Below, one piece after another: positions 1 through 50,257 of a DNA stretch of 50,257 bases. Position 1 is the first letter of the stretch. Every line of letters begins with the position of its first letter. The notes beneath the pieces were generated by a model that made no database searches, was not told the origin of the DNA, and saw only the letters and a program-made list of their open reading frames with translations. Source of the DNA: Anaerolineae bacterium (GTDB lineage: Bacteria; Chloroflexota; Anaerolineae; Aggregatilineales; Phototrophicaceae); assembly GCA_034437635.1 (NCBI GenBank), contig DAOTTT010000053.1:1-50257 (forward strand), read 5' to 3'. A program made the position numbers and the translations under genes.

Positions 1-137
1 CGTATTTTACCAAGAAGCATGACAAAGCATGGCAAGCTATTATGGAAACTTAACGTTTAGCCTATCCTATCAATAACATAGGCTAAAAAACAAAAAAAGG
101 AGTATGATAAGGGTAGAGTAACGTTGAAAAGAAAATA

Positions 138-2072
138 TTGATGAGTTTATCTAACACCGTTAAACACCGTTTAAAAACAACAGCCCAAAAGAACGATATC
201 ACATGCGATGAGTTGGTCATACGCATGATCGAGCAATTTGAAGCAGAGCAAGAAGCAATCCAAAACGTAGATACCAATAAGACAACCGCGCAGGAATTTC
301 TATGCGTCCTGACGTTATCCGGGCACATCACCCATACGAATGCCGACTTTCGGGATGTCATCGGCGCGGATGTCACAAACTTCTTCGACTGCATCCCGGC
401 GGAAGACCGCAACAACTTACGCTTGATGTTCTTACACAACGCAGACCACCCGCTGCATAACTGGCACAATCGAATCTTTACAGCCGATGGCTTAGAGCAA
501 TGGATAAGTTGGAACATCACCGTTAATGAAACACAAAAAACCTGGCACTTTACCGGGCATCGCATCGCGCCTAAGGAAAAATCACTTCATCTCATCAGCA
601 GCATTCTGGAGAGCATCACCGATGCCTTCTTCGCCCTGGATGACACGTTCCGGTTTATTTATGTCAACGCCGAAGCAGAGAAATTGCTCCAACAAGAGCG
701 GAATCACCTGATCGGTCGAAGCATTTGGGCCGCATTCCCGGAAGCTATCAATAGCACGTTCCAAACACAATACGAAAAAGCGCTCAAAACGCAGCAAAAA
801 TCTGAATTTTTGGAATATTACGCACCACTCGATATCTGGTTGGAGGTCAATACATATCCATCGACCGTCGGCCTATCCGTTTACTTCCGTGATGTAACAC
901 ATCGTAAACGCTTAGAGCAACGCCTCAACGAAATTATCAATACGCTAGAAGACCATGCGGAGCAGCGCACAGAAGAACTTACGCTATTGATGCACAAGCA
1001 AGCCCGCTTTGTTCAAGTCCTGGAACTCACAAGCGATCTTGTGTCGATGTGCGACAGCAACGGCTGGCTGACTTACATCAACCAAGCCGGTAAAGATATG
1101 ATCGGCATTGCGCATGATGCAAGCGCCCAAAAGTACCGCACAAAAGACTTTTACGACGATGAAACATGGCAGCACATCAACGATGAGATCATACCGCATG
1201 TGAACCGTGATGGCATTTGGCAAGGCGAAATTACGATCACCACACTAAACAATAAACGAATTATCACATCACAAGTTATTTTGCGACATCAGACCGATAA
1301 TGAAGTCATTTACTCTGCGGTTGGCCGCGACATCACCGCACAAAAACAGACCGAAGAAGAACTGCGCAATCTGCTACAAAAGCAGAAGGAACTAGCCGAG
1401 CTAAGAAGCCGGATCACGTCGATGGTCTCGCACGAGTTCCGCACGCCCCTCGCGACGATACGCTCATCCAGTGACTTGCTCCATAGCTATCATGACCGTA
1501 TGACACCGGAGCGACAACGCGAGTATATCGAAAAGATCCAAGCGCAGATCACACACTTATCCATGCTGATGGATAGCGTCGTAACGATCAATCGAGAGGA
1601 ATCTATCGGCGTGACGTATACCCCGAAGAGGCTTCACATCGCGGGTATTTGCCGCGAAATCGTCATGGACATACAGCTTTTGTATCGGGACAGTCATACG
1701 ATTGGTTATAGCGTCGTCGGGGAAGACATCGCCCACCAGTGGGACGAACGGCTTATCCGGCAGTTGGTGATTAACTTGTTATCTAATGCTATCAAATACT
1801 CGCCGAAAGAAACCCATGTGAGTATGACGCTTGCACACGAAGCCGAAGAGGTTATCATCACCGTGACTGACCAAGGCATCGGTATTCCAGAAGATGACTT
1901 TGATCGCATCTTTGAGAGCTTTCATCGCGGGAGCAACGTCGGCACGATAGAAGGCACCGGCTTGGGGATGCCACTCATCAAGCAAGCCGTAGACGCGCAC
2001 GGCGGCACAGTGGATATTCAAAGCGCCGTTGACCAAGGCTCAACGTTTACCGTGACATTGCCCATCCGCTAA
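138..2072 (+). CDS. Cytoplasmic multi-PAS sensor histidine kinase (PAS-PAS-HisKA-HATPase_c)
   Basis: 644-aa ORF with no TM segments. H-box SHEFRTPLATI, N-box NLLSNAIKYS and G-box GTGLGMPL are present, with PAS-like blocks upstream. TTG at 138; first ATG at 141. Confidence 0.85.
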   Translation: MMSLSNTVKHRLKTTAQKNDITCDELVIRMIEQFEAEQEAIQNVDTNKTTAQEFLCVLTLSGHITHTNADFRDVIGADVTNFFDCIPAEDRNNLRLMFLHNADHPLHNWHNRIFTADGLEQWISWNITVNETQKTWHFTGHRIAPKEKSLHLISSILESITDAFFALDDTFRFIYVNAEAEKLLQQERNHLIGRSIWAAFPEAINSTFQTQYEKALKTQQKSEFLEYYAPLDIWLEVNTYPSTVGLSVYFRDVTHRKRLEQRLNEIINTLEDHAEQRTEELTLLMHKQARFVQVLELTSDLVSMCDSNGWLTYINQAGKDMIGIAHDASAQKYRTKDFYDDETWQHINDEIIPHVNRDGIWQGEITITTLNNKRIITSQVILRHQTDNEVIYSAVGRDITAQKQTEEELRNLLQKQKELAELRSRITSMVSHEFRTPLATIRSSSDLLHSYHDRMTPERQREYIEKIQAQITHLSMLMDSVVTINREESIGVTYTPKRLHIAGICREIVMDIQLLYRDSHTIGYSVVGEDIAHQWDERLIRQLVINLLSNAIKYSPKETHVSMTLAHEAEEVIITVTDQGIGIPEDDFDRIFESFHRGSNVGTIEGTGLGMPLIKQAVDAHGGTVDIQSAVDQGSTFTVTLPIR

Positions 2073-2175
2073 AGCGATGAGTCTACTTCGTAGAGAAATT
2101 GCGCCGCGTCGTCAACGGTAAGGGCGATATAGATCTGTTTGCGCATGATGCGCATAAAATGAAGGATAAAATGCT

Positions 2176-3150
2176 ATGCGTTGGTTATTTTTCGCGTTGA
2201 TGGTGATGCTATCAGGTATCGGTATTCATGCACAAGAAGATGCCCCATCGCTCACCTGCCCGGAGGACTTCGCCGGGTATTTAGCCCCACGCTTGAGTGT
2301 CGGTAATTCCGCCCGTGTGCTGACCGTGCCGCTGAACCTCCGGCCGGAGGCCAGCACCGCCCGCGCCCGTTTGGATCAACTACAACCGGGGACAACGGTG
2401 CAGATCACCGATGGGCCGCGCTGCAATGAGGGCTATGTATGGTGGCAGGCCGTCCACAACGCGCAAACCGGGTGGATTGCGGAAGGCACCAGCGCCGACA
2501 ACACCTATTGGACACAACCACGCGGCGAACTGGTCTATCTCGACGGGGGAGACGGCATCGCCCGCCCTTACATCCGCCGGGCAGATGACACGCTTGAGCC
2601 TGCCGGGTGCATCCGTCCACCGGATAATTACAACCGCGTTTCTATTGGCTATGCCACGCTCAACCAGCGCACGCTATTTATGCTGGAACAAGCCTCCAAC
2701 ACCTGGCAATCGTTCGGCGGGGTGTATCGCTTCCGCGATCTCATCACGCAGGGCGGCTATAACAACGGCGCAGTCGAAGCCAGCTTCGGCACGCATGACG
2801 GCGGCGGCGCGGTGGATATTTCCGTGCGGAGCCGTGTAGATTGGAGTGTGATGTGGGCGGAAATCCCGTATATGATCGAGGCATTGCGCATCGCCGGGTT
2901 TGCCGCATGGGTGCGCGAGGACGGCGAACTTTACCCCAATTCGCCCATACACATTCATGCCATCGCCGTCGGTGACGCGGAATTATCGCCTGCCGCCCAA
3001 GCTCAGATCGACGGCGAACGCGGGTATCTGCGCGGGTATAACGGCCTACCGGCAAGCTACGGCGAGCCGATCCCGGATAAATGGGGCGAGCCGGTCATCT
3101 GCCAATGGATGATCGATGATGGTTGGCCGGATTTGCGTGTAGCGGGGTAA
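2176..3150 (+). CDS. Secreted SH3b-domain / LAS-type (M15-like) zinc peptidase, probable cell-wall DD- or LD-peptidase
   Basis: Signal peptide MRWLFFALMVMLSGIGIHAQ. SH3b-like block GTTVQITDGPRCNEGYVWWQAVHNAQTGWIAEG. Zn-ligand motifs H-x6-D (HDGGGAVD) and HxH (HIHAIA). Confidence 0.6.
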   Translation: MRWLFFALMVMLSGIGIHAQEDAPSLTCPEDFAGYLAPRLSVGNSARVLTVPLNLRPEASTARARLDQLQPGTTVQITDGPRCNEGYVWWQAVHNAQTGWIAEGTSADNTYWTQPRGELVYLDGGDGIARPYIRRADDTLEPAGCIRPPDNYNRVSIGYATLNQRTLFMLEQASNTWQSFGGVYRFRDLITQGGYNNGAVEASFGTHDGGGAVDISVRSRVDWSVMWAEIPYMIEALRIAGFAAWVREDGELYPNSPIHIHAIAVGDAELSPAAQAQIDGERGYLRGYNGLPASYGEPIPDKWGEPVICQWMIDDGWPDLRVAG

Positions 3151-3165
3151 CTATTCGCGGCGACC

Positions 3166-4719
3166 TCACTCGTCGTCGGCATGTCTTTCGCGGGTCTTGC
3201 GGTCGATAATCGCCAGTTCTTTGGTGGCCGGGCGGCGGTTGCGCTGGATAAGCGGGATACGTGGGCGCGTGGAACGACTGTGACTTTCGGTTTCATCGGA
3301 TTCATCGCGGTTCGGGTCGTACACCGGGATCGTCACGGAGAAAGTCGTGCCCTCATCCGGGACACTTGTCACGCTGATTGTACCATTATGCGCTTCTGCG
3401 ATCCACTTCGCAATGGACAAGCCCAAGCCGAAGCCTTCGTTATCGTAATGATGACGCGAGGTTTCCGTCTGGAAGAAGCGTTCAAACACATGCTTCGTGT
3501 CCTCTTGGCTGATGCCGATGCCCGTATCTTTGACCCACAACACCGCATGATCGTTAATGTTCTCCAGGCCAATGACGATTTCGCCGCCGTCCGGCGTAAA
3601 CTTGACGGCGTTATTGACGAGATTATAAATCACCTGCTTGATGCGGTCAGCGTTCCCGTTGATGCGCACTGGCTCAAAATGCCCCAAACGCACTGTAAGG
3701 TCACGGTCTTTTGCCAACACTTCACATTGCTGGAAGGAATCCATCACCACGACATCGAGATCAAGCGGATACAATTCAACATCAACACCGCCATAATCCG
3801 CCCGTGCCAGCATCAGCAGATCGCTGACTAAGCGCGACATCCGCCCGATTTCACTTTCGATGGCTTCTGCGGAGAGTTCATCCATACCATAACGCCGCAT
3901 CAAGTCAAAGTGACCTTGGATGGCCGTCAACGGCGTGCGCAACTCGTGGCTTATATCCGCCACGAAACGCTTCTGCACGCTAAACAGATGCTCGATGCGC
4001 TCCATCATCTTGTTGAAGACGTTAGTCAGTTTGCCGAGTTCGTCGTTGGGGCCGCTCCAATCTAAGCGGGTTTGTAGGTCATTGGTGTTGGCGATGCTGG
4101 CTGCCGCGTTAGTAATATCACCGATGGGCTGCAAGGCGCGATGGGTAAACCACATACTGAGCAAACCCGCGCCGACAATAGCAAAGCCACACGCCACCAG
4201 CGTAATCACCAGTAGCGTATCTGTCGCAACGTTGACTTGATCTAAGGGGACGGCAACTTGAATATTGCCGACAATCTGCGCACCGCCACCGCTTGCCGTG
4301 ATAGGCTTCGTCAGCACGCGCATATTCAGCCCGGCGACCATCGTACTGTGGATGGTCGCCGTCACAGCGCCGAGTGCCTCTGCGTCAAGCGGCGTTGACC
4401 CTAGCCCCTCCGCAGTGAGCGAAGCGGCTTTAAACTCGTAACCATTATCCACAAATTCCCATGCTTGGACATATACCCCAGGGGCACGCAGCATATCCAG
4501 CGGTGCAAGGTCAATATTGACCCTTGGCGAATCGCCAAAGGTCGGCTCCGAGTAAATACGGCTGTTGCGCGTGATGAGGCTGGCGGTTTCCGCCAGCCCG
4601 CTGTCAATATTGCTAATCATCGTGAACCGCATCACGCCGTATGTTGAAACACCAAACACGATAATAATCATGGTGAGCAGCACGGCATAATACAGCGTGA
4701 GCCGCTTACGAATTGCCAT
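3166..4719 (-). CDS. Membrane sensor histidine kinase (2 TM, periplasmic loop, HAMP, HisKA, HATPase_c)
   Basis: 517 aa. H-box SHELRTPLTAIQGH, N-box NLVNNAVKFT, G-box GFGLGLSIA. Lies 24 nt downstream of an OmpR-type regulator on the same strand. Confidence 0.9.
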   Translation of the reverse strand: MAIRKRLTLYYAVLLTMIIIVFGVSTYGVMRFTMISNIDSGLAETASLITRNSRIYSEPTFGDSPRVNIDLAPLDMLRAPGVYVQAWEFVDNGYEFKAASLTAEGLGSTPLDAEALGAVTATIHSTMVAGLNMRVLTKPITASGGGAQIVGNIQVAVPLDQVNVATDTLLVITLVACGFAIVGAGLLSMWFTHRALQPIGDITNAAASIANTNDLQTRLDWSGPNDELGKLTNVFNKMMERIEHLFSVQKRFVADISHELRTPLTAIQGHFDLMRRYGMDELSAEAIESEIGRMSRLVSDLLMLARADYGGVDVELYPLDLDVVVMDSFQQCEVLAKDRDLTVRLGHFEPVRINGNADRIKQVIYNLVNNAVKFTPDGGEIVIGLENINDHAVLWVKDTGIGISQEDTKHVFERFFQTETSRHHYDNEGFGLGLSIAKWIAEAHNGTISVTSVPDEGTTFSVTIPVYDPNRDESDETESHSRSTRPRIPLIQRNRRPATKELAIIDRKTRERHADDE

Positions 4720-4743
4720 ATGTTCTCGTCAGCCTACCTGCTT

Positions 4744-5424
4744 TTATTCCTCGCGGAGGACATAACCGACCCCACGCACTGTATGGATTAAGCGACTTTC
4801 TTCTTCGGATTCGGTCTTCTGGCGCAAATAGCGCACATAGACTTCAATGATGTTGCTCTCTCCGCCGAAGTCGTAGCCCCATACACGATCAAAAATAACA
4901 TCGCGGGTCAATACCTGACGCGGATTGCGCATGAAGAGTTCGAGCAATTCGTACTCTTTGGCAGTCAGGTCGATCGCACGATCACCACGATGGGCGCGGT
5001 GTGTGCCTGTATCCAATGTAAGATCAGCGAAACGCAGTACCTCCGGGCGTGATGTCGGCGTTACACGGCGGAACATTGCCCGCACACGCGCCATAAGTTC
5101 ATCTACGGAGAAAGGTTTAACCAAATAGTCATCTGCACCAGCGTCCAGCCCGGTCACCCGGTCGTTAATGTCGTCTTTAGCTGTCAACATCAAAATCGGG
5201 ACTTCGCTAGCCGCACGCAAACGCTTGCAGACCTCTAGGCCATCAATGCCGGGCAGCATCCAATCCAAGATCACCAAGTCCGGCGGGTTGTCCCGCGCGA
5301 TGGTTAATCCTGTTTGCCCATCACGGGCAACATTGACACGGTACCCTTCGTAGATCAGGCCACGCTCGATAAATTGTGCAATTCTTGCTTCGTCTTCAAT
5401 GACGAGAATACGTTCACCAGACAT
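4744..5424 (-). CDS. OmpR/PhoB-family response regulator
   Basis: 226 aa. Receiver motifs [21 protein letters not shown] and LTAKD. Winged-helix C-terminus ([18 protein letters not shown]). Confidence 0.92.
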
Positions 5425-5515
5425 ATATAAACTTCCTCTGCGTTGTCTCTAATCGTAAACTTTGAGAATGAGCAGGATACATACCCTGCATTAAAAATCG
5501 GTAAATCTCGCTGTA

Positions 5516-7432
5516 TTATTCCCATCTTACTGCAATTATGCCGCCCGGACGCTGAAGAACGGACAATTCATCACCGTTGACAATCACCAGTTGATCCGTA
5601 TCACCACTCACCCCAGCCACTTGTAGACCATCAGCGGAGAGCCGCGCCGCACGGATAAAGCCGAGATCGGCCAGGGGGGTAAAGTCCCCGCCTGTGATGG
5701 GCACGAAGCCTAATGTCACACGGTCAGGGCCGAACGTCTGCCGCGTGCGAACAATCGCCCTAAACGTCCCAGGGTCGAACTGCGCCGCGTCCACAATCTC
5801 GAAGGCGTTCGTCGTCCATAACGGTAACACGCTGATCGGGTCAACGCGACTGTCAATTAAGGCGAGTTCGGTCCCTTGCGGCGCATTGCGCCAAGCCAAC
5901 ATACGCCCATCGACTAACCATAATGCTCTATCATACGTGTCTATCGTTAATAATGCCTCAGAAACCGGATCAAAAACGGCGATTTCTGGGCTTTCACTCA
6001 CCAGATGGATGAGCAAAGCATTAACATTGGGCGCGAAAGCCGGGCGACGGACGTTCACCCCTTCACTATTAGGCAGAATCAAGGTCGGCGCGTTTAACTC
6101 TGCGGTGGGTGTGGTGGCTACCTGCCACAGGCCGCCATCCACAATGTTGGTCGTCACATAATACAGTAACGTGCCATCCGCACTAAAAGTTAAATCAGTG
6201 GCCGTATCGTTGACCTTCGCCAGTTCGACGGGTTCATCCCCGGTTTGCAGCCACAACGACCCGCCGCTGCTATACGCGACCGTATCCCCACGCAGGGCGA
6301 AATCAACCACATCAAAATCGACCTGTGTCAGTTGTTGGCGCGGGGAGCCATCCGCAGGCAAGCGCCACGCTTGCATCACGCCGAAGCTCGGCGCACGGAA
6401 CGTCACATCTTGCCCGGTGGCGATGCCCTCTTGCCCAACCGGGAGCAACGCCCCCCAGCCAAACGCGACGGCGCTCCCCACAGGCAGCGCAAAGCCGACC
6501 CCTTCCAGCGGCAGCACCAACGAGAGCGCCCCATCACGAAACGACAGCATCAACTCCCCGCGTGGCACCCAGCTTAAGCCCGTCACATCGAGATCGTTTT
6601 CGCTGGTTGTCTCCACCGTGCCCGTCGCCGCGTCGATCACTTGATAAAACGCGCCGCTCTCCCCGATGACGGGTTCGTCCGGTTGGCGGGATAGCACGGC
6701 AATCCGTCCATCCGGGCGCACATACGGATAACGATATAAGCGGTTGGCCGGGCGGATGACCGTCTGTGTGTTCACGTTATCGAGATCCAGCAGCAACAGG
6801 CCGCCTTCCGCCGGGGCGAAGACCAAGCGCCCGCCATCCAGCCACGACGTGCCAAACGAGAACGGCAACGCCCCGGTGATGGGCATCGCGTTAGCTTCGC
6901 GGCGATACAGCCACCACACCCGCGCTTCCGCCTCCGCTGCGAGATACCGACCATCCAGCGACCACGCCAGATGCCGCAGCGGGCTAACGGCAATATCCGT
7001 AAACTGTGTGCCCGTCGCGCTGAGGTTAAACGCGACCCGTGCGCCGTATTCGGTAGTATACGCCAGCGCATCCCCTGTAGGCGACCAGTCAAGGGTCTGC
7101 CCGCCGGTGCGCAGCGGCGGGAAGTTGGCCGTCGTGCCTTCCACTTGTAGCGGGTCGCTTTCGGGCGCTTCCATATCGTACAAATAAAGGCCGTCCGCGC
7201 TGCGATACGCGATCCAGCGGCCATCCGGCGCGACAGCAAAATCAACGACAAAAACATCCGGTGGTGTGACCGCTTGCACACCTGCCGCCCCCAAGCCGAC
7301 TCGCTCTACACGGCCTTCATTGAGTAGAATATACAATCCGGTCGGCAGGTCTTGTCCATCACTCTGTGCGGCCACACGCCCCACAGCAAGCAACAACAAC
7401 AAACACCCAACCAGAACCAACTTTCGTAACAT
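5516..7432 (-). CDS. Secreted TolB-like beta-propeller protein, function unknown
   Basis: 638 aa. Signal peptide ending VAAQ. Repeated PDGR/SPDG-type blade motifs (APDGRWIAY, SLDGRYLA, RPDGRIAV, SADGTLLYY). RBS GGAGGG. Confidence 0.6.
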   Translation of the reverse strand: MLRKLVLVGCLLLLLAVGRVAAQSDGQDLPTGLYILLNEGRVERVGLGAAGVQAVTPPDVFVVDFAVAPDGRWIAYRSADGLYLYDMEAPESDPLQVEGTTANFPPLRTGGQTLDWSPTGDALAYTTEYGARVAFNLSATGTQFTDIAVSPLRHLAWSLDGRYLAAEAEARVWWLYRREANAMPITGALPFSFGTSWLDGGRLVFAPAEGGLLLLDLDNVNTQTVIRPANRLYRYPYVRPDGRIAVLSRQPDEPVIGESGAFYQVIDAATGTVETTSENDLDVTGLSWVPRGELMLSFRDGALSLVLPLEGVGFALPVGSAVAFGWGALLPVGQEGIATGQDVTFRAPSFGVMQAWRLPADGSPRQQLTQVDFDVVDFALRGDTVAYSSGGSLWLQTGDEPVELAKVNDTATDLTFSADGTLLYYVTTNIVDGGLWQVATTPTAELNAPTLILPNSEGVNVRRPAFAPNVNALLIHLVSESPEIAVFDPVSEALLTIDTYDRALWLVDGRMLAWRNAPQGTELALIDSRVDPISVLPLWTTNAFEIVDAAQFDPGTFRAIVRTRQTFGPDRVTLGFVPITGGDFTPLADLGFIRAARLSADGLQVAGVSGDTDQLVIVNGDELSVLQRPGGIIAVRWE

Positions 7433-7524
7433 AGTCCCTCCATACTGAGTCCAAGCATTTCTATTATACGGTTTGTCTGCAAACTATGCTTGGTTCACAT
7501 GCGGAACAATAAGATCACCCCCGG

Positions 7525-7553
7525 TTGACCATAAAATTAACCCATGTTAAAAT
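7525..7553 (+). promoter_or_regulatory. Sigma70-type promoter for the metal ATPase
   Basis: TTGACC (7525-7530), a 17-nt spacer, then TAAAAT (7548-7553), about 44 nt upstream of the ATG at 7597. Confidence 0.55.
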
Positions 7554-7596
7554 AGAGTCATTAAACAAGAAATTCTATACACAACAGGAGTTGTGA

Positions 7597-9576
7597 ATGA
7601 TTATCAACACTGGGTTAAACCCCGTCATACACGATCAACACGAAGACGACAACAACGGACATGCAATTTTTTCGCAAGAATGGCTCGAACCGCGCTTAGT
7701 CGGCGTAACAGCCGCTGCGATTGTCGCCAGCTTCATCGGCGGGCAGGTGGGCATCCCGGCATGGCTGGATGGCGTATTGGGCTTAATCGCCTATATCGCC
7801 GGGGGCTTGTATGGCTTGCAGACGGCCTTACACTCGCTTTTTGTGGAGCGCGTGCTGGATGTTGACCTGTTGATGATCTTAGCGGCGTTGGGGGCGGCGT
7901 TCATCGGCGCATGGCACGAAGGCGCTATTTTGCTGTTCCTGTTTTCGCTGTCTAACGTCTTGCAGGATTACGCCATCGGGCGCAGCCGCAACGCCATCAA
8001 GAGCCTGTTTAAGCTCTACCCGGAAGAAGCCCGCGTCAAGCGTGGCGACACCGTGCAGACCATCAAATTCGACCAAATCCGCAAGGACGATCTGGTTTTG
8101 ATCGAACCGGGCGAGCGCATCCCGGTGGATGGTGAAGTCGTCACGGGCGCGTCAGCGGTGGACGAAAGCCCCATCACCGGCGAGAGTATGCCTGTAGAAA
8201 AGCAGATAGGCGATCAAGTCTTCGCCGGGACGCTCAACAAGCAAGGCGCGTTAGACGTGCGAGCGACCAAGACCGCCAGCAACAACACCCTAGCGCGGAT
8301 CATCCAGATGGTGGAAGACGCGCAAGAAAACCAAGCGCCGACCGAACGCTTTTTAGAGACGTTCGAGCAGTATTACGCCGGGTTCATCGTGTTCAGCGTT
8401 TTGCTCATTATCATCATCCCGCCGCTGCTGTTCAACGCGAATTTTGACGCGAACTTCTACCGCGCAATGGTCTTGATGACCGTCGCTAGCCCGTGCGCGT
8501 TGGTGATTAGCGTACCGGCATCGTTTATCAGCGCCATTGCTGCCGCCGCCCGCATGGGTATCTTGTTTAAAGGCGGCGCATATCTGGAACAAATGGCGAC
8601 TGTGAAAGCGATTGCCTTTGATAAAACGGGCACGCTCACCAGTGGCAAGCCCGCCGTGACCAACATCGTCACGCACGAAATCAGCGAAGCCGACCTGATA
8701 CACATCGCCGCCAGTGCGGAGGCCCGCAGCGAGCATCCACTCGCCAAGGCCATCGTCCGCGAAGCCGAGACACGCGGCATCACTTACGACACCATTGATA
8801 GCTTCGAGGCGAAATCCGGGCAAGGCGTGGAAGTCGTGCTCAATGGGCAGACGATCAACGTGGGCAGCCCGACCTACTTGCAGGCGATTACGCCCATCCC
8901 GCCCGCGCTAGACGACCAACTGCACGCGCTGGAAAGCGACGGGAACACCGTCATCGGCGTGATCCAAGCAGGGACATGGCGCGGCTTGATCGCGTTAGCC
9001 GACCAACTGCGCCCCGAGGCGGTGCAAGTCGTCCAAGGCTTAAAAGCACTCGGCTTAAAAGTCGCCATGTTCACCGGGGATAACCCGCGTGTGGCTGAGG
9101 CAATCGCGGCGCAAGTCGGCATTGATCGCGTCCACGCCGGGCTGATGCCCGAAGAAAAGGTCACGGCGCTGCGCCAACTCCAAGACGAGATCGGCGCGGT
9201 GGCGATGGTCGGGGATGGCGTTAACGATGCCCCGGCGCTAGCGACTGCTCAGATCGGCATGGCGATGGGTGCCGCCGGTACAGACGTGGCGCTCGAAACG
9301 GCGGACGTGGTGCTCATGGGCGACAAGCTCGCGCTCATTGAACAGGCTATCGCCCTGAGCCAGAAGGCGCGGCGCGTCGTTTGGCAGAATATCGTCTTCT
9401 CGCTGGCCGTCATCGTGATGCTAGTCTTAGGCGCACTGTTCATCAATCTGCCGCTGCCGCTCGGTGTGCTAGGGCACGAGGGCAGCACCGTGATCGTCGT
9501 CCTCAATGGCTTGATCGCCCTGCTCATCCTGCCGGAAGTCGCCCGTCGCAAGCGGGAACGCCAACACGCTACATAG
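7597..9576 (+). CDS. Heavy-metal P-type ATPase, P1B-4 subgroup (Co/Zn/Cd-type exporter)
   Basis: 659 aa. DKTGTLT phosphorylation site, TGES, GDGVNDAPAL. SPC in TM6 (VASPCALVIS) and HEGSTVIVVLNG in the last TM. No N-terminal HMA domain. RBS AGGAG. Confidence 0.88.
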   Translation: MIINTGLNPVIHDQHEDDNNGHAIFSQEWLEPRLVGVTAAAIVASFIGGQVGIPAWLDGVLGLIAYIAGGLYGLQTALHSLFVERVLDVDLLMILAALGAAFIGAWHEGAILLFLFSLSNVLQDYAIGRSRNAIKSLFKLYPEEARVKRGDTVQTIKFDQIRKDDLVLIEPGERIPVDGEVVTGASAVDESPITGESMPVEKQIGDQVFAGTLNKQGALDVRATKTASNNTLARIIQMVEDAQENQAPTERFLETFEQYYAGFIVFSVLLIIIIPPLLFNANFDANFYRAMVLMTVASPCALVISVPASFISAIAAAARMGILFKGGAYLEQMATVKAIAFDKTGTLTSGKPAVTNIVTHEISEADLIHIAASAEARSEHPLAKAIVREAETRGITYDTIDSFEAKSGQGVEVVLNGQTINVGSPTYLQAITPIPPALDDQLHALESDGNTVIGVIQAGTWRGLIALADQLRPEAVQVVQGLKALGLKVAMFTGDNPRVAEAIAAQVGIDRVHAGLMPEEKVTALRQLQDEIGAVAMVGDGVNDAPALATAQIGMAMGAAGTDVALETADVVLMGDKLALIEQAIALSQKARRVVWQNIVFSLAVIVMLVLGALFINLPLPLGVLGHEGSTVIVVLNGLIALLILPEVARRKRERQHAT

Positions 9577-9637: not shown

Positions 9638-9687
9638 CATCTTACACTCACCAAGCATATATAAGCCCTGACTTATGACAGCTATAA

Positions 9688-9793
9688 GCAACTGATAAGC
9701 CTATATCCCGCATCGGCTCAAAGCCGATGGCTACATTAAACGCTAGGAAGCCCGTAAAGGGCTAGTCAGCGCGAAAGATCAATTTTATACAGC
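9688..9793 (+). mobile_element. MITE-family copy A (left part only, degenerate end, internal module inverted, right end missing)
   Basis: Aligns to copies at 32286 and 50150 (CCTATATCCCGCATCGGCTCAAAGCCGATGGCTACATTAAACGCTAGGAAGCCCGTAAA). The left TIR is reduced to GCAACT..GATAAGCC. Confidence 0.75.
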
Positions 9794-17745: not shown

Positions 17746-17807
17746 TGGGCTAGCCCCCGGTTTTGAACCGGGGCAGTAAGCAAATCAGAGCATACCTGAA
17801 TAGTTAC
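17746..17807 (+). mobile_element. MITE-family copy B (right half only)
   Basis: GGGCTAGCCCCCGGTTTTGAACCGGGGCAGTAAGCAAATCAGAGCATACCTGAATAGTTAC matches the right end of the copy at 32286-32474, including the TIR with one mismatch. Confidence 0.8.
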
Positions 17808-24316: not shown

Positions 24317-24338
24317 CGTCATCCTTTGGTGCAAATAG

Positions 24339-24536
24339 GTAACTACTCAGCTAACGTGTATATTGCCCGCATCGGCTCAAAGCCGATGGCTACATAAACT
24401 CTTGGAAGCCCATAAATGGGCTGTATACAATGATACTTCTCACTAATTGCCCCATTTATGGGTCGCCCGTTTACGGGCTTTGCAGTTAGCTAGTCCCCGG
24501 TTTTGAACCGGGGCAGCATACAAATCAGCACGTTAC
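24339..24536 (+). mobile_element. MITE-family copy C (full length, diverged right end)
   Basis: Starts GTAACTACTCAG and contains all the hairpin modules. Flanked by GCAAATAG (24331-24338) and GAAAATAG (24537-24544), a 7/8 target-site duplication. Confidence 0.8.
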
Positions 24537-24594
24537 GAAAATAGGCGTTAATCGTAGATGTTACTTATTTTTTATATTACAATGTAATGAGCGG

Positions 24595-31803: not shown

Positions 31804-32205
31804 TTACACGCCTGACGACTGTGCCATTTGTCGCGCTTGATTTACCAAATCATCGACAATATACCGCAAAATAGAGGTACTGTTGGCGATCTCTTGGACT
31901 TGTATTTTTTGCGCTGTGTTGAGCGTGTCCATCATGCGGGTGATGAGTAACTCGGAATAGCCGAACATCGGCGTAAGCGGGTTGCCTAGCTCGTGGCGCA
32001 ACTCGGACGAGACTTTATCCGGGGGTAAGGCGGAGAAAGCAGTCGCCACATGGATGAACTTTTCCGCATTGGCGAGAATTTTACGGATAAATTCGCCTTG
32101 ACGGGCATCAAGTGTGCCGTCTTCCTCTCGTAAGAGGGCTTCTGCATTTTGTACAATGGTGCTAATGTGATCCTGTAACGCTGCGTCCATAGGTATTCCT
32201 GTCAA
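31804..32205 (-). CDS. Stand-alone HisKA/DHp-like protein (no ATPase domain)
   Basis: 133 aa. ELRHELGNPLTPMFGYSELL is an H-box with no HATPase domain. It aligns by eye with the 18612-18968 product. Confidence 0.55.
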   Translation of the reverse strand: MTGIPMDAALQDHISTIVQNAEALLREEDGTLDARQGEFIRKILANAEKFIHVATAFSALPPDKVSSELRHELGNPLTPMFGYSELLITRMMDTLNTAQKIQVQEIANSTSILRYIVDDLVNQARQMAQSSGV

Positions 32206-32285
32206 AACAGACTGCGATTCAGACTCTATCTTACTAACAATTCAGGTTAAGCACAATTCAGGTTTTATTCTTTCACAAGTTTTTC

Positions 32286-32474
32286 GTAACTACTCAGGTA
32301 TATCCCGCATCGGCTCAAAGCCGATGGCTACATTAAACGCTAGGAAGCCCGTAAACGGGCTGTATAAAATGATCTTTCGCGCTGACTAGCCTGTTTACGG
32401 GCGGCGCATACATGGGCTAGCCCCCAGTTTTGAACCGGGGCAGTAAGCAAATCAGAGCATACCTGAGTAGTTAC
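32286..32474 (+). mobile_element. MITE, reference copy D (189 bp, perfect 16-bp TIRs, 8-bp TSD)
   Basis: GTAACTACTCAGGTAT (32286-32301) is the exact reverse complement of ATACCTGAGTAGTTAC (32459-32474). AGTTTTTC lies on both flanks (32278-32285 and 32475-32482). No ORF inside. Confidence 0.9.
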
Positions 32475-32493
32475 AGTTTTTCACAATCTTGGA

Positions 32494-33954
32494 GTGATGA
32501 TGATGCTCAAAAAGTATGAACCTTTGATTTTATATGTGCTGGTGTTCTTCGGCGGGTTTGCCAATCTCGCAGCGGAGATCATCGGCCCGCGTATGTTCGC
32601 GTCGTTGTTCGGTAATACGACAACCGTCTGGGCGGTGATGATCTCCGTGACCTTGGTCGGCCTGTCGGTCGGGTATGCCATCGGCGGACGCATCCAAGCG
32701 GAAAAAGCACGCGGGTTATTGCCGGCGGTCTTGCTGGTTAACGCGGTATGGTTGCTCATCATCGGTTGGGTCATCTGGGAAGTCCCGGCGGCAGCCGTAG
32801 CCGGGGGCACACGCATCGACGCAAGTATGTTACTCACGGTCAGTTCCGGCGCATTCTTCGTGCCGTCGGTGCTGTTTGGCATGATCTCCCCGGTGACGAT
32901 TACCCTGCTCTCTGCGGAAAAGGCCACGACCAATAGCAGCGAAACCGTCGGCAACGTCTACGCAATCGGCACAGTGGGCAGCGTAGCCGGAGCCTTAAGC
33001 GCGGCTTTCTTCCTTATACCCTGGGTGGGCTTGACGCAATCGCTGCAAGTATTTGCGGCGGGGTTGGTGTTGTTCGCGGCCTACTTCTGGGCGGATCGCT
33101 GGCGGTATGCGGTGGCAGCGGCGGCGGTCATCCCGTTGATTGTGCCGCAGCCGGGCTTTGTATGGCGTGAGGATGACGGGCTTGAACTCCTGGCGCAGCG
33201 CGAAGGCTATTATCAAACGGTGCGGGTATATGCCAATGATGAATTCGTACAGATGCACCTAGGGCCGACCTTCCACAGTCGCATGGATTTAGAGACAGGC
33301 TTGCCCACGTTCAGCTATGCGCAGACCATGCTCGACCTCATCCCCGACGATGTGAGCGACCAGCACACGCTGATTATCGGCGGTGCCGGGCATAGCCTCG
33401 CCCGTGAGCTAGAGCGGCGCGGCGCGACGACGGTCGAAGTAGAAATTGATCCGGTTGTGGTGGATCTCTCCGACGAATACTTCGGCACGATAGACGGCGA
33501 GATCGTCATCCAAGATGGGCGCGTATACATGGCCGGTGTTCCGGCGGGTAGCTTCGATTTTGTTATCGTGGATGCCTTCGACGGCGCGGCCACCGTCCCG
33601 CCGCAGTTGACCACGCAAGAATTTTTTCAGGAAGCGGCGCGGGCGCTCACGCCGGAGGGTGTGCTGTATTATAACTTTGTGGGCACGCCGGAGGGCGAGC
33701 GTAACCGTTCGTTTAAGGCGATAGCCACCACGATGGATGCCGTTTTCGCCTCGGTTGGGGCGCGGTCTTCTCGCGGGGATGGCTTGCTCCAGGGCGAAGA
33801 CTCGCAGAATATTATCTTTGTCGCGTCGAACGGCTCCTTGGGGGCGCTGCCGCTTTCGCCTGTGCCGGATGACGGCACGCTCCTAACGGATAACAACAAT
33901 CCAATGGAGATTTTCCTGGCCGAAGCGCGTGATTTCATCTATTACCGCCGCTAA
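32494..33954 (+). CDS. Fused polytopic-membrane / spermidine-synthase-like (class I methyltransferase fold) protein
   Basis: 486 aa. About 200 aa of TM helices, then IIGGAGHSLARELE, VEVEIDPVVVDL and FVIVDAFDG, as in aminopropyltransferases. Confidence 0.75.
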   Translation: MMMMLKKYEPLILYVLVFFGGFANLAAEIIGPRMFASLFGNTTTVWAVMISVTLVGLSVGYAIGGRIQAEKARGLLPAVLLVNAVWLLIIGWVIWEVPAAAVAGGTRIDASMLLTVSSGAFFVPSVLFGMISPVTITLLSAEKATTNSSETVGNVYAIGTVGSVAGALSAAFFLIPWVGLTQSLQVFAAGLVLFAAYFWADRWRYAVAAAAVIPLIVPQPGFVWREDDGLELLAQREGYYQTVRVYANDEFVQMHLGPTFHSRMDLETGLPTFSYAQTMLDLIPDDVSDQHTLIIGGAGHSLARELERRGATTVEVEIDPVVVDLSDEYFGTIDGEIVIQDGRVYMAGVPAGSFDFVIVDAFDGAATVPPQLTTQEFFQEAARALTPEGVLYYNFVGTPEGERNRSFKAIATTMDAVFASVGARSSRGDGLLQGEDSQNIIFVASNGSLGALPLSPVPDDGTLLTDNNNPMEIFLAEARDFIYYRR

Positions 33955-35471: not shown

Positions 35472-36575
35472 ATGCGTAGACTATTTGCTCTACTTACGGT
35501 TTTAGCCCTTTTCGCGATGGCCTTCTCCGGCTTCGCCCAGGATGACGAAGAAAGCAACACCATTGCTGACATCGTTGTTGCCTCGGCAAGTGCAGAAGAA
35601 GGCGCGGAGTTCACCGTGCTGTTGACGGCTGTCCAGGCCGCTGACCCGATTGTGCTGGAACTGCTGGCTGACCCCGAAGCCGAAGTCACCGTTTTCGCCC
35701 CGACTGATGCGGCGTTCACCGCTCTGTTCGGCGCACTGGGTGAAGAAACCGTAACCGCCCTGCTGGAAGACCCCGCAGCCCTGACCGAAATCCTCACCTA
35801 CCACGTCGTTGAAGGCGCAGCCTTTAGCGAAGACGTTGCCGCGCTCTTGGTTGATGGCGACTTCTCCGTCGAGACCCTCAACGGCCAATATGTTGACGTA
35901 GCGACAACCGAAGAAGGTGGCATCACCCTGGACGATGCTAACCTGGTGCTGGAAATGCTGGACATCGAAGCCGATAACGGCGTGATCCACGTCATCGACG
36001 CAGTGCTGCTGCCGGAAGATCGCACCATTGCCGAAGTCGTCGTTGAGGCCGCTAGCGCAGAAGAAGGCGCGGAGTTCACCTCCCTGCTGGCCGCTGTACA
36101 AGCCGCTGACCCGGCAGTCCTGGAAGCACTCAGCAACCCTGATGCTGAACTGACCGTGTTCGCCCCGACCGACGAAGCATTCGCCGCTTTGGGTGAAGAA
36201 ACAATCTCCGCCGTCTTGGCTGACCAAGCCCTGGTGACCGGTATCCTGCTCTACCACGCTGCTGAAGGCGCAACCTACAGCGGTGACATCGTCGACTACT
36301 TCATGGGTGGTATGGACATGGAAGAAGAAGGCGACATGGAAGAGGGCGATGAAGCCGAAGACATGGACGAAGAAGGCATGGACGATATGATGTCTGACGC
36401 GCTGGTTGTTACCATGCTCGATGGCCTGGACGCTGAAATCACCGTGACCGAAGAAGGCGTGTTCATCAATGACGCACAGATCATCCTGACCGACATCGAC
36501 GCAGCCAACGGCGTAATCCACGTCATTGACGCAGTGCTGATGCCGCCGATGGACGACATGGGCGACGAAGAGTAA
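35472..36575 (+). CDS. Secreted tandem fasciclin (FAS1) domain protein with an acidic Met-rich insertion
   Basis: Signal peptide MRRLFALLTVLALFAMAFSGFAQ. Two FAS1 units (TVFAPTDAAF, LTYHVVEG / LLYHAAEG, NGVIHVIDAVLLP / LMP). Confidence 0.88.
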   Translation: MRRLFALLTVLALFAMAFSGFAQDDEESNTIADIVVASASAEEGAEFTVLLTAVQAADPIVLELLADPEAEVTVFAPTDAAFTALFGALGEETVTALLEDPAALTEILTYHVVEGAAFSEDVAALLVDGDFSVETLNGQYVDVATTEEGGITLDDANLVLEMLDIEADNGVIHVIDAVLLPEDRTIAEVVVEAASAEEGAEFTSLLAAVQAADPAVLEALSNPDAELTVFAPTDEAFAALGEETISAVLADQALVTGILLYHAAEGATYSGDIVDYFMGGMDMEEEGDMEEGDEAEDMDEEGMDDMMSDALVVTMLDGLDAEITVTEEGVFINDAQIILTDIDAANGVIHVIDAVLMPPMDDMGDEE

Positions 36576-41931: not shown

Positions 41932-42940
41932 CGTCACCAAAAAATACGGCCAATTAACCGCCGCTGATGCGGTATCCATGACGATCCAACCGGGGGAGTT
42001 GTGGGCGCTGCTCGGCGCGAGTGGCTGCGGCAAGACCACCACCTTACGCCTCATCGCCGGGCTAGAACGCCCCGATGGGGGCAACATTACTTTAGGCGAA
42101 CGCCAAGTCGCCAACAAAACGTCATTTATCCCACCGGAGCAGCGGCGCGTGGGCTTGGTCTTCCAAGATTACGCGCTGTTTCCTCATCTCAACGTGGAAC
42201 AAAATATCCACTTTGGCCTCAACGATTATCGCGGCGACAAAAAAGCCCGGATGCGTGAGATGCTGACATTGGTCGGTTTAAACGGCCTGGAGCGCCGGAT
42301 GCCGCACGAGCTTTCCGGTGGGCAACAGCAACGGGTGGCTTTAGCGCGGGCGCTGGCCCCTGCCCCGGAGGTGCTGCTGCTGGATGAGCCGTTCAGCAAC
42401 TTAGACGCAGCACTGCGGGCACAAGTGCGCGGGGAAGTGCGCGACATTCTGCACAAGGCCGAGGTGACCGCCGTCTTCGTCACCCACGACCAGGAAGAAG
42501 CCCTGAGCCTGGCCGATCAAGTCGCGGTGATGGCACATGGCCGCGTAGAGCAGATCGGCACACCACAGCAAATTTACACGCAACCGCAGGCACGCCACGT
42601 CGCCGCATTTGTGGGCGAAGCCAACTTCATCAGCGGCCACGCGGACGGACTCACCGCACACAGTGCCCTCGGCACGCTGACGTTGACAGAGGCCGCCCAA
42701 GGCGCTGTTGACCTCATGCTTCGCCCGGAAGCGGTCGCCATTCATGCCGTCACCGTAGATGACACCGTACAAGCGACCGTCGAAGATGTGGAATTTTACG
42801 GCCACGATCAACGGGTGGTGCTGCGCCTGGACGATGACACGGTGTTGATCTCGCGCATGGGGGCATGGGAGACGTTCACACGCGGGCAGCGCGTGGGCGT
42901 TGCGGTGATCCACACGGCGCAGGCGTTTGACGCGAAATAA
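41903..42940 (+). CDS. Iron ABC transporter ATP-binding protein (FbpC/AfuC-like)
   Basis: Walker A GASGCGKTT, signature LSGGQQQRVALARAL, Walker B LLLDEP. GTG at 41903 after GGAGAAG. The longest ORF starts at TTG 41888. Confidence 0.92.
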   Translation: MTGTRIQLVNVTKKYGQLTAADAVSMTIQPGELWALLGASGCGKTTTLRLIAGLERPDGGNITLGERQVANKTSFIPPEQRRVGLVFQDYALFPHLNVEQNIHFGLNDYRGDKKARMREMLTLVGLNGLERRMPHELSGGQQQRVALARALAPAPEVLLLDEPFSNLDAALRAQVRGEVRDILHKAEVTAVFVTHDQEEALSLADQVAVMAHGRVEQIGTPQQIYTQPQARHVAAFVGEANFISGHADGLTAHSALGTLTLTEAAQGAVDLMLRPEAVAIHAVTVDDTVQATVEDVEFYGHDQRVVLRLDDDTVLISRMGAWETFTRGQRVGVAVIHTAQAFDAK

Positions 42941-43061
42941 CTACAAAAGGCTACCCCGGCTCAAAGCCGGGGCTAGCAGACCACAGCACATATAGGCGCA
43001 GCACGAAATACCATATCATACAGCCCATTTATGGGCTTTCAGGCATTTACAGTGTAGACCA
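42934..43061 (+). mobile_element. MITE-family copy G (diverged and rearranged)
   Basis: ATAACTAC..CCCCGGCTCAAAGCCGGGG, followed by the reverse complement of the AGCCCATAAATGGGCTGTAT... module. Overlaps the stop codon at 42938-42940. Confidence 0.6.
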
Positions 43062-47098: not shown

Positions 47099-47215
47099 GT
47101 AACTACTCAGGTATAGCATCTGCCTTCCCCCTCACCCCAGACGCAAAGCGTCGAGGGTGGGAGAGGGGGACAGCGACATTTGTCGCAGGGGGTGAGGGGT
47201 GCGCTGAGTGGTTAC
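47099..47215 (+). mobile_element. MITE-family copy E1 (same TIRs, different 85-bp G-rich hairpin cargo)
   Basis: Left end GTAACTACTCAGGTAT; right end GCTGAGTGGTTAC. The interior has CCCCCTCACCCC ... GGGGTGAGGGG plus GACGC-aaa-GCGTC and GCGAC-attt-GTCGC hairpins. Confidence 0.7.
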
Positions 47216-47222
47216 TATTTAA

Positions 47223-47282
47223 ATAACTACTCAGGTAAAGCCTATATCCCGCATCGGCTTTGAGCCGATGCGGATAGATAGC
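47223..47282 (+). mobile_element. MITE-family copy E2 (left part only, first hairpin flipped)
   Basis: ATAACTACTCAGGTAAAGCCTATATCCCGCATCGGCTTTGAGCCGATGCGGATA. It starts 7 nt after E1. The loop is TTTGAG instead of CTCAAA. Confidence 0.7.
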
Positions 47283-50149: not shown

Positions 50150-50257
50150 GTAACTACTCAGGTAAAGCCTATATCCCGCATCGGCTCAAAGCCGATGGCT
50201 ACATTAAAAGCTAGGAAGCCCGTAAACGGGCTGTATAAAATGATATTTCGCGCTGAC
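50150..50257 (+). mobile_element. MITE-family copy F (left part; runs off the window)
   Basis: GTAACTACTCAGGTAAAGCCTATATCCCGCATCGGCTCAAAGCCGATGGCTACATTAAAAGCTAGGAAGCCCGTAAACGGGCTGTATAAAATGATATTTCGCGCTGAC is nearly identical to copy D. Confidence 0.85.

Follow-up and report, generated by a model that had tools for sequence, protein, structure and literature searches.

The 189-bp element at positions 32286-32474 of the analysed DNA (a stretch of 50,257 nucleotides, called the window below) is very probably a MITE derived from the single-ORF ISBst12 group of the IS66 family. The sequence-only reading had already called it a MITE, and the call was upheld: the element has no transposase ORF, its TIRs agree at 16/16 positions, copies of it are multiple and dispersed, and the 8-bp duplications that flank them differ from one copy to another. 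As such it is an ordinary bacterial MITE whose source is a known IS group.

Architecture of the 189-bp element

The element and its perfect 16-bp TIRs were reproduced exactly, both in the coordinates that had been proposed for them and in the 16/16 complementarity of the ends, and the octamer that had been read as a perfect flanking duplication was found abutting both ends. The features of the locus are as follows.

32278 to 32285, no strand: left copy of the target-site duplication, AGTTTTTC, directly abutting the left TIR
32286 to 32301, + strand: left TIR, GTAACTACTCAGGTAT, an end of the ISBst12-group type, 16/16 with the right TIR
32302 to 32458, no strand: non-coding interior made of hairpin modules, 157 nt between the TIRs
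32308 to 32326: hairpin 1 of the interior
32347 to 32361, pairing with 32388 to 32402: long stem of the interior
about 32422 to 32440: CCCC...GGGG hairpin of the interior
32459 to 32474, - strand: right TIR, ATACCTGAGTAGTTAC, the exact reverse complement of GTAACTACTCAGGTAT
32475 to 32482, no strand: right copy of the target-site duplication, AGTTTTTC, identical to the left copy and abutting the right TIR, with an RBS and a Spermine_synth-like gene next

The two TIRs and the spacing of 157 nt between them give the total of 189 bp. The interior had been described as a chain of hairpins free of any ORF; the hairpins were found, and nothing coding for more than 36 aa, the length of the longest ORF within the element, was present. 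The predicted RNA fold of the whole element reached -82.8 kcal/mol, compared with -53.1 +/- 4.1 kcal/mol for shuffles (z = -7.2), and an Rfam scan of the same 189 bp gave zero matches, even at E<=1.

The frequency of the end motif was compared with that expected. With up to 3 mismatches allowed, the window contained 7 occurrences of the 16-mer end where 0.06 were expected, a number that none of 100 shuffles reached; the relaxed end GTRACYRCTCAG also occurred 7 times, against 0.055 expected. Chance was therefore excluded. A tblastn search with two IS66-type transposases was carried out against the window together with 8.7 kb beyond it (about 59 kb), and no such transposase was found, the best E being 0.47. 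The earlier statement that no transposase is present in the window thus holds for the IS66 type, which is the only type covered by this search.

Copies of the element and their surroundings in the host strain

A sensitive BLAST search of the element against the window was performed and each match was then read individually, with an extension past the window via a near-identical MAG contig (GCA_964429505.1). In about 59 kb of host sequence this gave three full-length copies, one variant and four fragments, and the window holds at least 8 copies or fragments. Apart from the element itself, they are:

24339 to 24536, + strand: older full-length copy, 198 bp, about 79% identity, right TIR partly deleted; its duplication, GCAAATAG at 24331-24338 and GAAAATAG at 24537-24544, matches at 7/8 positions
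50150 to 50257, + strand: another young copy of full length (about 92% identity), interrupted by the window end
47099 to 47215, + strand: 117-bp element with ends GTAACTACTCAGGTAT ... CTGAGTGGTTAC and an unrelated G-rich palindromic interior
47223 to 47275, + strand: truncated copy with left end ATAACTACTCAGGTAA and hairpin 1, its loop flipped
17746 to 17807, + strand: fragment limited to the 62 nt at the right-hand end (96.8% identity), with the right TIR present at 1 mismatch
9680 to 9793, + strand: decayed copy with a degenerate left end, holding element positions 14-70 and then an inverted copy of 74-106
42938 to 43040, + strand: strongly decayed copy with the degenerate end ATAACTACAAAAGG, detected through weak BLAST matches and read by eye

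The copy that is cut at position 50257 was recovered whole at L122:11825-12025 (201 bp), where it is flanked by a perfect 8-bp duplication, GTATTATG. That the octamer is not part of the element was borne out by the flanks of the other full copies, which carry GTATTATG (8/8) and GCAAATAG/GAAAATAG (7/8); the duplications differ in sequence between copies, and the octamer is therefore target-derived. The youngest two copies were only about 92% identical to each other. Judged by sequence divergence, this difference of about 8% argues against a very recent amplification, so that the MITE family may no longer be active in this host.

The 117-bp variant at 47099-47215 is a second MITE type with the termini of the main family, and no in-register target duplication was seen for it. 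The truncated main-family copy at 47223-47275 begins 7 nt after the variant, and this adjacency, together with the missing in-register duplication, may reflect a nested or an adjacent insertion. Within one decayed copy, the segment between two GCCCGTAAACGGGC-type arms (window 9702-9793) was inverted relative to the full-length copies, which suggests recombination between the internal inverted repeats of the element. In the strongly decayed copy at 42938-43040, the stem of hairpin 1 had changed in a compensated manner and hairpin 2 was reversed. When the hairpin-1 pattern was used for a metagenome scan, two loci sharing only the 21-nt hairpin were returned, and no further copies.

The host strain was detected, at 99.9-100% identity, in metagenomes of Andean microbial mats and in one JGI sample, and the insertion at 32286-32474 was present in 4/4 independent contigs of this strain. 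Three metagenome contigs (L120, L121 and L124) end within copies of the element, as a multicopy repeat is expected to make them do. The MAG contig CAYSCQ010000001.1, almost identical in all else, starts 8,185 nt further in than the window and lacks window positions 1-8185; the window is therefore from a different, longer assembly of the same strain. The 26-mer of the reconstructed empty (pre-insertion) site (TTTCACAAGTTTTTCACAATC) gave 0 matches in the metagenome scan. RsgA homologues from Phototrophicales and Aggregatilineales MAGs were 67-72% identical to that of the host, and the one from Phototrophicus methaneseepsis was 64% identical. These homologues assign the host, an uncultured bacterium, to class Anaerolineae of the Chloroflexota, with the Phototrophicales and Aggregatilineales MAGs as its nearest neighbours. 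The closest long relative contigs (RsgA about 72% identical) showed no synteny and no ISBst12-type ends in 63 kb, and amplification of the element family would thus appear to be lineage-specific. MITEs with the same ends were found in related taxa, namely a 123-bp element in an Anaerolineae genome (L073, duplication ATACTACA) and a 218-bp element in Aggregatilineales (L115).

Two of the three full copies lie 22-25 nt upstream of a start codon, directly 5' of the RBS. For the 189-bp element, 25 nt separate the right end from the downstream ATG at 32500 (+ strand; RBS GGAG at 32490-32493), where the gene for a Spermine_synth-like membrane protein starts; for the 24339 copy, the left end precedes the start codon of the pfkB kinase gene (24316, minus strand) by 22 nt. 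From this position just 5' of the RBS, we infer that the Spermine_synth-like and pfkB genes would be transcribed from within or through the MITE; a scan for sigma-70-like promoters and intrinsic terminators detected neither.

The same placement raises the question of whether the locus is a structured ncRNA gene, or a cis-regulatory 5'-UTR leader of the Spermine_synth-like gene whose ends merely close a stem. Such a reading would account for the very stable predicted structure, for the distances to the two start codons and for the few stem positions that change compensatorily between copies. It is nevertheless very unlikely: Rfam gave no match at E<=1, the copies adjoin unrelated genes and do so in both orientations, and the flanking duplications, along with ends common to transposase-bearing elements, indicate a transposon origin. 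The covariation, moreover, comes from only three sequences, too few to argue selection, and palindromes can stay paired without selection. An RNA role of the MITE would be at most secondary and exapted, not an alternative identity.

We also considered a REP/BIME-like or REPIN palindromic repeat, which would be spread by recombination or by a transposase of the RAYT (Y1 HUH) type instead of moving as a DDE-type MITE. The interior is indeed a GC-rich hairpin chain with a strong fold (z = -7.2), its modules recur separately in other intergenic regions, and some module copies lack recognisable TIRs while one carries a flipped segment. REP/REPIN elements, however, make no target-site duplications and do not have 16-bp TIRs common to DDE insertion sequences, whereas 3 copies here are flanked by differing 8-bp duplications and the same end bounds elements with IS66 transposases. 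The TIR-less copies keep degenerate end remnants, so they are better read as decayed MITEs, and a REP-type origin is highly improbable.

Some further observations were made around the MITE. To its left, tandem copies of ACAATTCAGGTT at 32237-32248 and 32253-32264, 16 nt apart, lie upstream of an ORF on the minus strand (31804-32190, 128 aa) that contains little beyond a HisKA phospho-acceptor domain and no ATPase domain; this HisKA-only ORF is divergently transcribed from the MITE-bearing spacer. The first ACAATTCAGGTT copy resembles the TIR core (TAACAATTCAGGT vs TAACTACTCAGGT, 11/13), and the motif occurs nowhere else in the window. The tandem motif might serve as a binding site for a regulator, be the decayed remnant of a solo end, or have arisen by chance. 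In a fasciclin-domain ORF (35472-36575), an internal repeat of about 70% identity was observed between 35558-35829 and 36023-36282, and it probably represents tandem FAS1 domains.

The 16-bp end in other prokaryotes and in IS66-family elements

A scan for the exact 16-mer GTAACTACTCAGGTAT was carried out with one genome per prokaryotic species, and none of the matches listed comes from the host. At least 117 loci were obtained. In nearly all matches listed, the 16-mer formed the sharp outer edge of a lineage-specific repeat, beyond which the flanks were unrelated and mostly AT-rich; the lineages included Opitutales, Methanosarcinales/Methanothrix, Nitrosotalea, Fibrobacter, Bacteroidales, Nitrospinota, Anaerolineae and others. 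Opposite ends were then paired when they lay up to 3 kb apart, which yielded at least 50 candidate elements. Among these listed pairs, the 8-bp flanks were perfect (8/8) in 15, matched at 7/8 in 8 and at 6/8 in 6, and the 15 perfect duplications were diverse in sequence; across the listed loci the duplications were about 70% A+T. Most of the paired elements among the matches listed measured only 67-500 bp and are therefore MITEs. Short non-autonomous elements with lineage-specific interiors were far commoner than transposase-bearing copies among the matches listed. One end pair (L069, 1616 bp) was rejected as a chance pairing, as it encloses an ordinary metabolic gene and has no duplication.

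In Methanosarcinales/Methanobacteriota MAGs (L053, L057 and L085), archaeal MITEs of 234-238 bp were seen that end in the identical 16-mer and are flanked by exact duplications of 8 bp. In Nitrosotalea, the repeats that bear the 16-mer end sit at contig edges (L036, L052 and L097). The archaeal matches carry the identical end, which is thus common to both prokaryotic domains.

The sequence-only reading had linked the element to IS66 through its GTAA termini and 8-bp duplications, and this link gained support, as the exact 16-mer bounds two elements that encode IS66 transposases. The first, from Cloacimonadales (L034:942-2575), is 1634 bp long with the duplication CACGAATC; the second, from Rikenellaceae (L107:292-1979), is 1688 bp long. 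Each contains a single coding-strand ORF of at least 100 aa and encodes one protein, of 468 or 490 aa. The two proteins matched NCBIfam NF033517 'IS66 family transposase' with 235 and 244 bits (equivalog cutoff 180) and Pfam DDE_Tnp_IS66 (PF03050) with E = 7e-32 and 4e-38, and both have DUF6444 at the N-terminus; they are 37% identical to each other. In the Cloacimonadales MAG the IS66-family element interrupts a membrane transporter gene (L034:360-3585). When the IS and one copy of its duplication were excised in silico, the flanking ORFs fused into one transporter ORF of 530 aa, which amounts to a computed empty site for this IS.

Transposase remnants adjoining the exact 16-mer end were found at 3 further listed loci. 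One of them, in a Bacillota MAG (L064:1765-2288), is a 524-bp element with only about 90 C-terminal transposase codons between its ends and no intact duplication; its structure fits a stage of internal deletion on the way from an IS to a MITE.

Named and annotated relatives carry the GTAACTACTCAG terminus as well. One is ISDge4 of Deinococcus geothermalis, an IS66-family element classified in the ISBst12 group that encodes one transposase of 449 aa; its TIRs are GTGACTACTCAGCA and GTAACTGCTCAGCA, its 8-bp direct repeat is CCTCGATG, its transposition was seen experimentally, and its donor copies are reported to be retained (PMC12898284). The following elements are carried by plasmids.

ISGst1, Geobacillus stearothermophilus pGS18: 1613 bp, terminus GTAACTATTCAG, 8-bp duplication AAAAGAAC
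IS66-family element, B. thuringiensis (annotated plasmid): 1628 bp, terminus GTAACTACTCAGCTT, 8-bp duplication AATAAATT
IS66-family element, Segatella copri (annotated plasmid): 1825 bp, terminus GTAACTACTCAGCACCCC, 8-bp duplication GAAGCGTT

All three (1613-1825 bp, one annotated CDS each) have ends of the form GTAACTA(C/T)TCAG, and a 12-base end core is common to the 189-bp element, ISDge4, ISGst1 and the B. thuringiensis and Segatella IS66-family elements.

Canonical IS66 elements have ends that begin with GTAA and make 8-bp duplications; their ends read GTAAGCG... and so differ from GTAACTACTCAG. Canonical members (IS66 and IS679; tnpA-tnpB-tnpC, 2-3 kb) share the transposase superfamily, DDE_Tnp_IS66, with the autonomous relatives found here, but the latter fit one ORF in 1.6-1.8 kb, with no TnpA or TnpB. 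The comparison of ends and coding capacity therefore supports a narrower attribution than had been proposed, to what is probably the single-ORF ISBst12 group and not canonical three-ORF IS66. The group was assigned because the ends are identical to those of the Cloacimonadales and Rikenellaceae elements and the terminus GTAACTACTCAG is shared with the named elements ISDge4 and ISGst1. With the ISBst12 group (ISBst12, ISGst1 and ISDge4) the 189-bp element thus has in common the terminus and the 8-bp target duplication. It differs in that autonomous members are about 1.6-1.8 kb long with one ORF of 450-490 aa, whereas the 189-bp element is devoid of a transposase gene and carries as its interior a hairpin cassette for which no similarity to the autonomous members retrieved was detected.

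Several IS families produce 8-bp duplications and no local transposase is there to decide, so that a MITE of another such family (IS1595, ISL3, IS256, IS6 or hAT-like) with a coincidental GTAA terminus might be proposed, but this is hardly credible: 16/16 terminal bases match two independent IS66-family elements whose transposases have diverged to 37% identity, the 12-base core recurs in all the IS66-family relatives named above, and no other transposase type adjoins the end among the matches listed (at least 117 loci).

In its architecture the ISBst12-type MITE resembles other bacterial MITEs, for example the IS982-derived MITE of Cardinium (PMC9769881) and MITEPsy1/2 (PMC3189936), which likewise consist of a small non-coding body between TIRs taken from an IS family, lie in intergenic DNA flanked by duplications, are present in many copies and are predicted to fold strongly; the parent IS family of these elements is a different one. 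No ISBst12-derived MITEs, and no papers containing the end sequence GTAACTACTCAGGTAT, were found in the literature searched, the coverage of which was incomplete and did not extend to ISfinder.

Proposed mobilisation and significance

The proposed mechanism follows from these relationships. A DDE transposase of the ISBst12 group would be supplied in trans, from an autonomous copy that lies elsewhere in the genome or was formerly present, and it would recognise the two 16-bp ends beginning GTAACTACTCAG. It would insert the element where the target, preferentially intergenic and AT-rich, is cut with a stagger of 8 bp, and gap repair would produce the 8-bp target duplication. Amplification has given the lineage many copies of the element, and these decay at different rates. 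Beyond the 16-mer, no subterminal or interior similarity was found between the 189-bp element and the autonomous ISs retrieved; the interior is unlike any of them, and an origin by internal deletion is therefore not demonstrated. This missing continuity bears on how the element arose and not on its mobilisation by such a transposase.

A bolder proposal would be that the hairpin cassette has been recruited to act as a promoter module or as part of a transcribed leader, and that the GTAACTACTCAGGTAT ends define an uncatalogued MITE superfamily of Bacteria and Archaea in which non-autonomous members greatly outnumber autonomous ones. We regard this as rather unlikely.

In this genome, the MITE accounts for an intergenic repeat family at which metagenome assemblies break and which has displaced the native sequence upstream of at least 2 genes. 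The general understanding of MITEs is unchanged by these findings. Their most noteworthy by-product is the 16-bp identity across phyla, together with the excess of MITEs over autonomous copies among the matches listed. The ISBst12-group terminus was identical over 16 positions in lineages very distant from one another, among them Chloroflexota, Verrucomicrobiota (Opitutales), Bacteroidota, Cloacimonadota, Nitrospinota, Methanosarcinales and Nitrosotalea among the matches listed, and the 16-mer offers annotators a simple sequence handle on a widespread and probably under-annotated class of MITEs. Conservation over 16 bp suggests that the poorly characterised transposases of the ISBst12 group may be unusually strict in recognising their ends.
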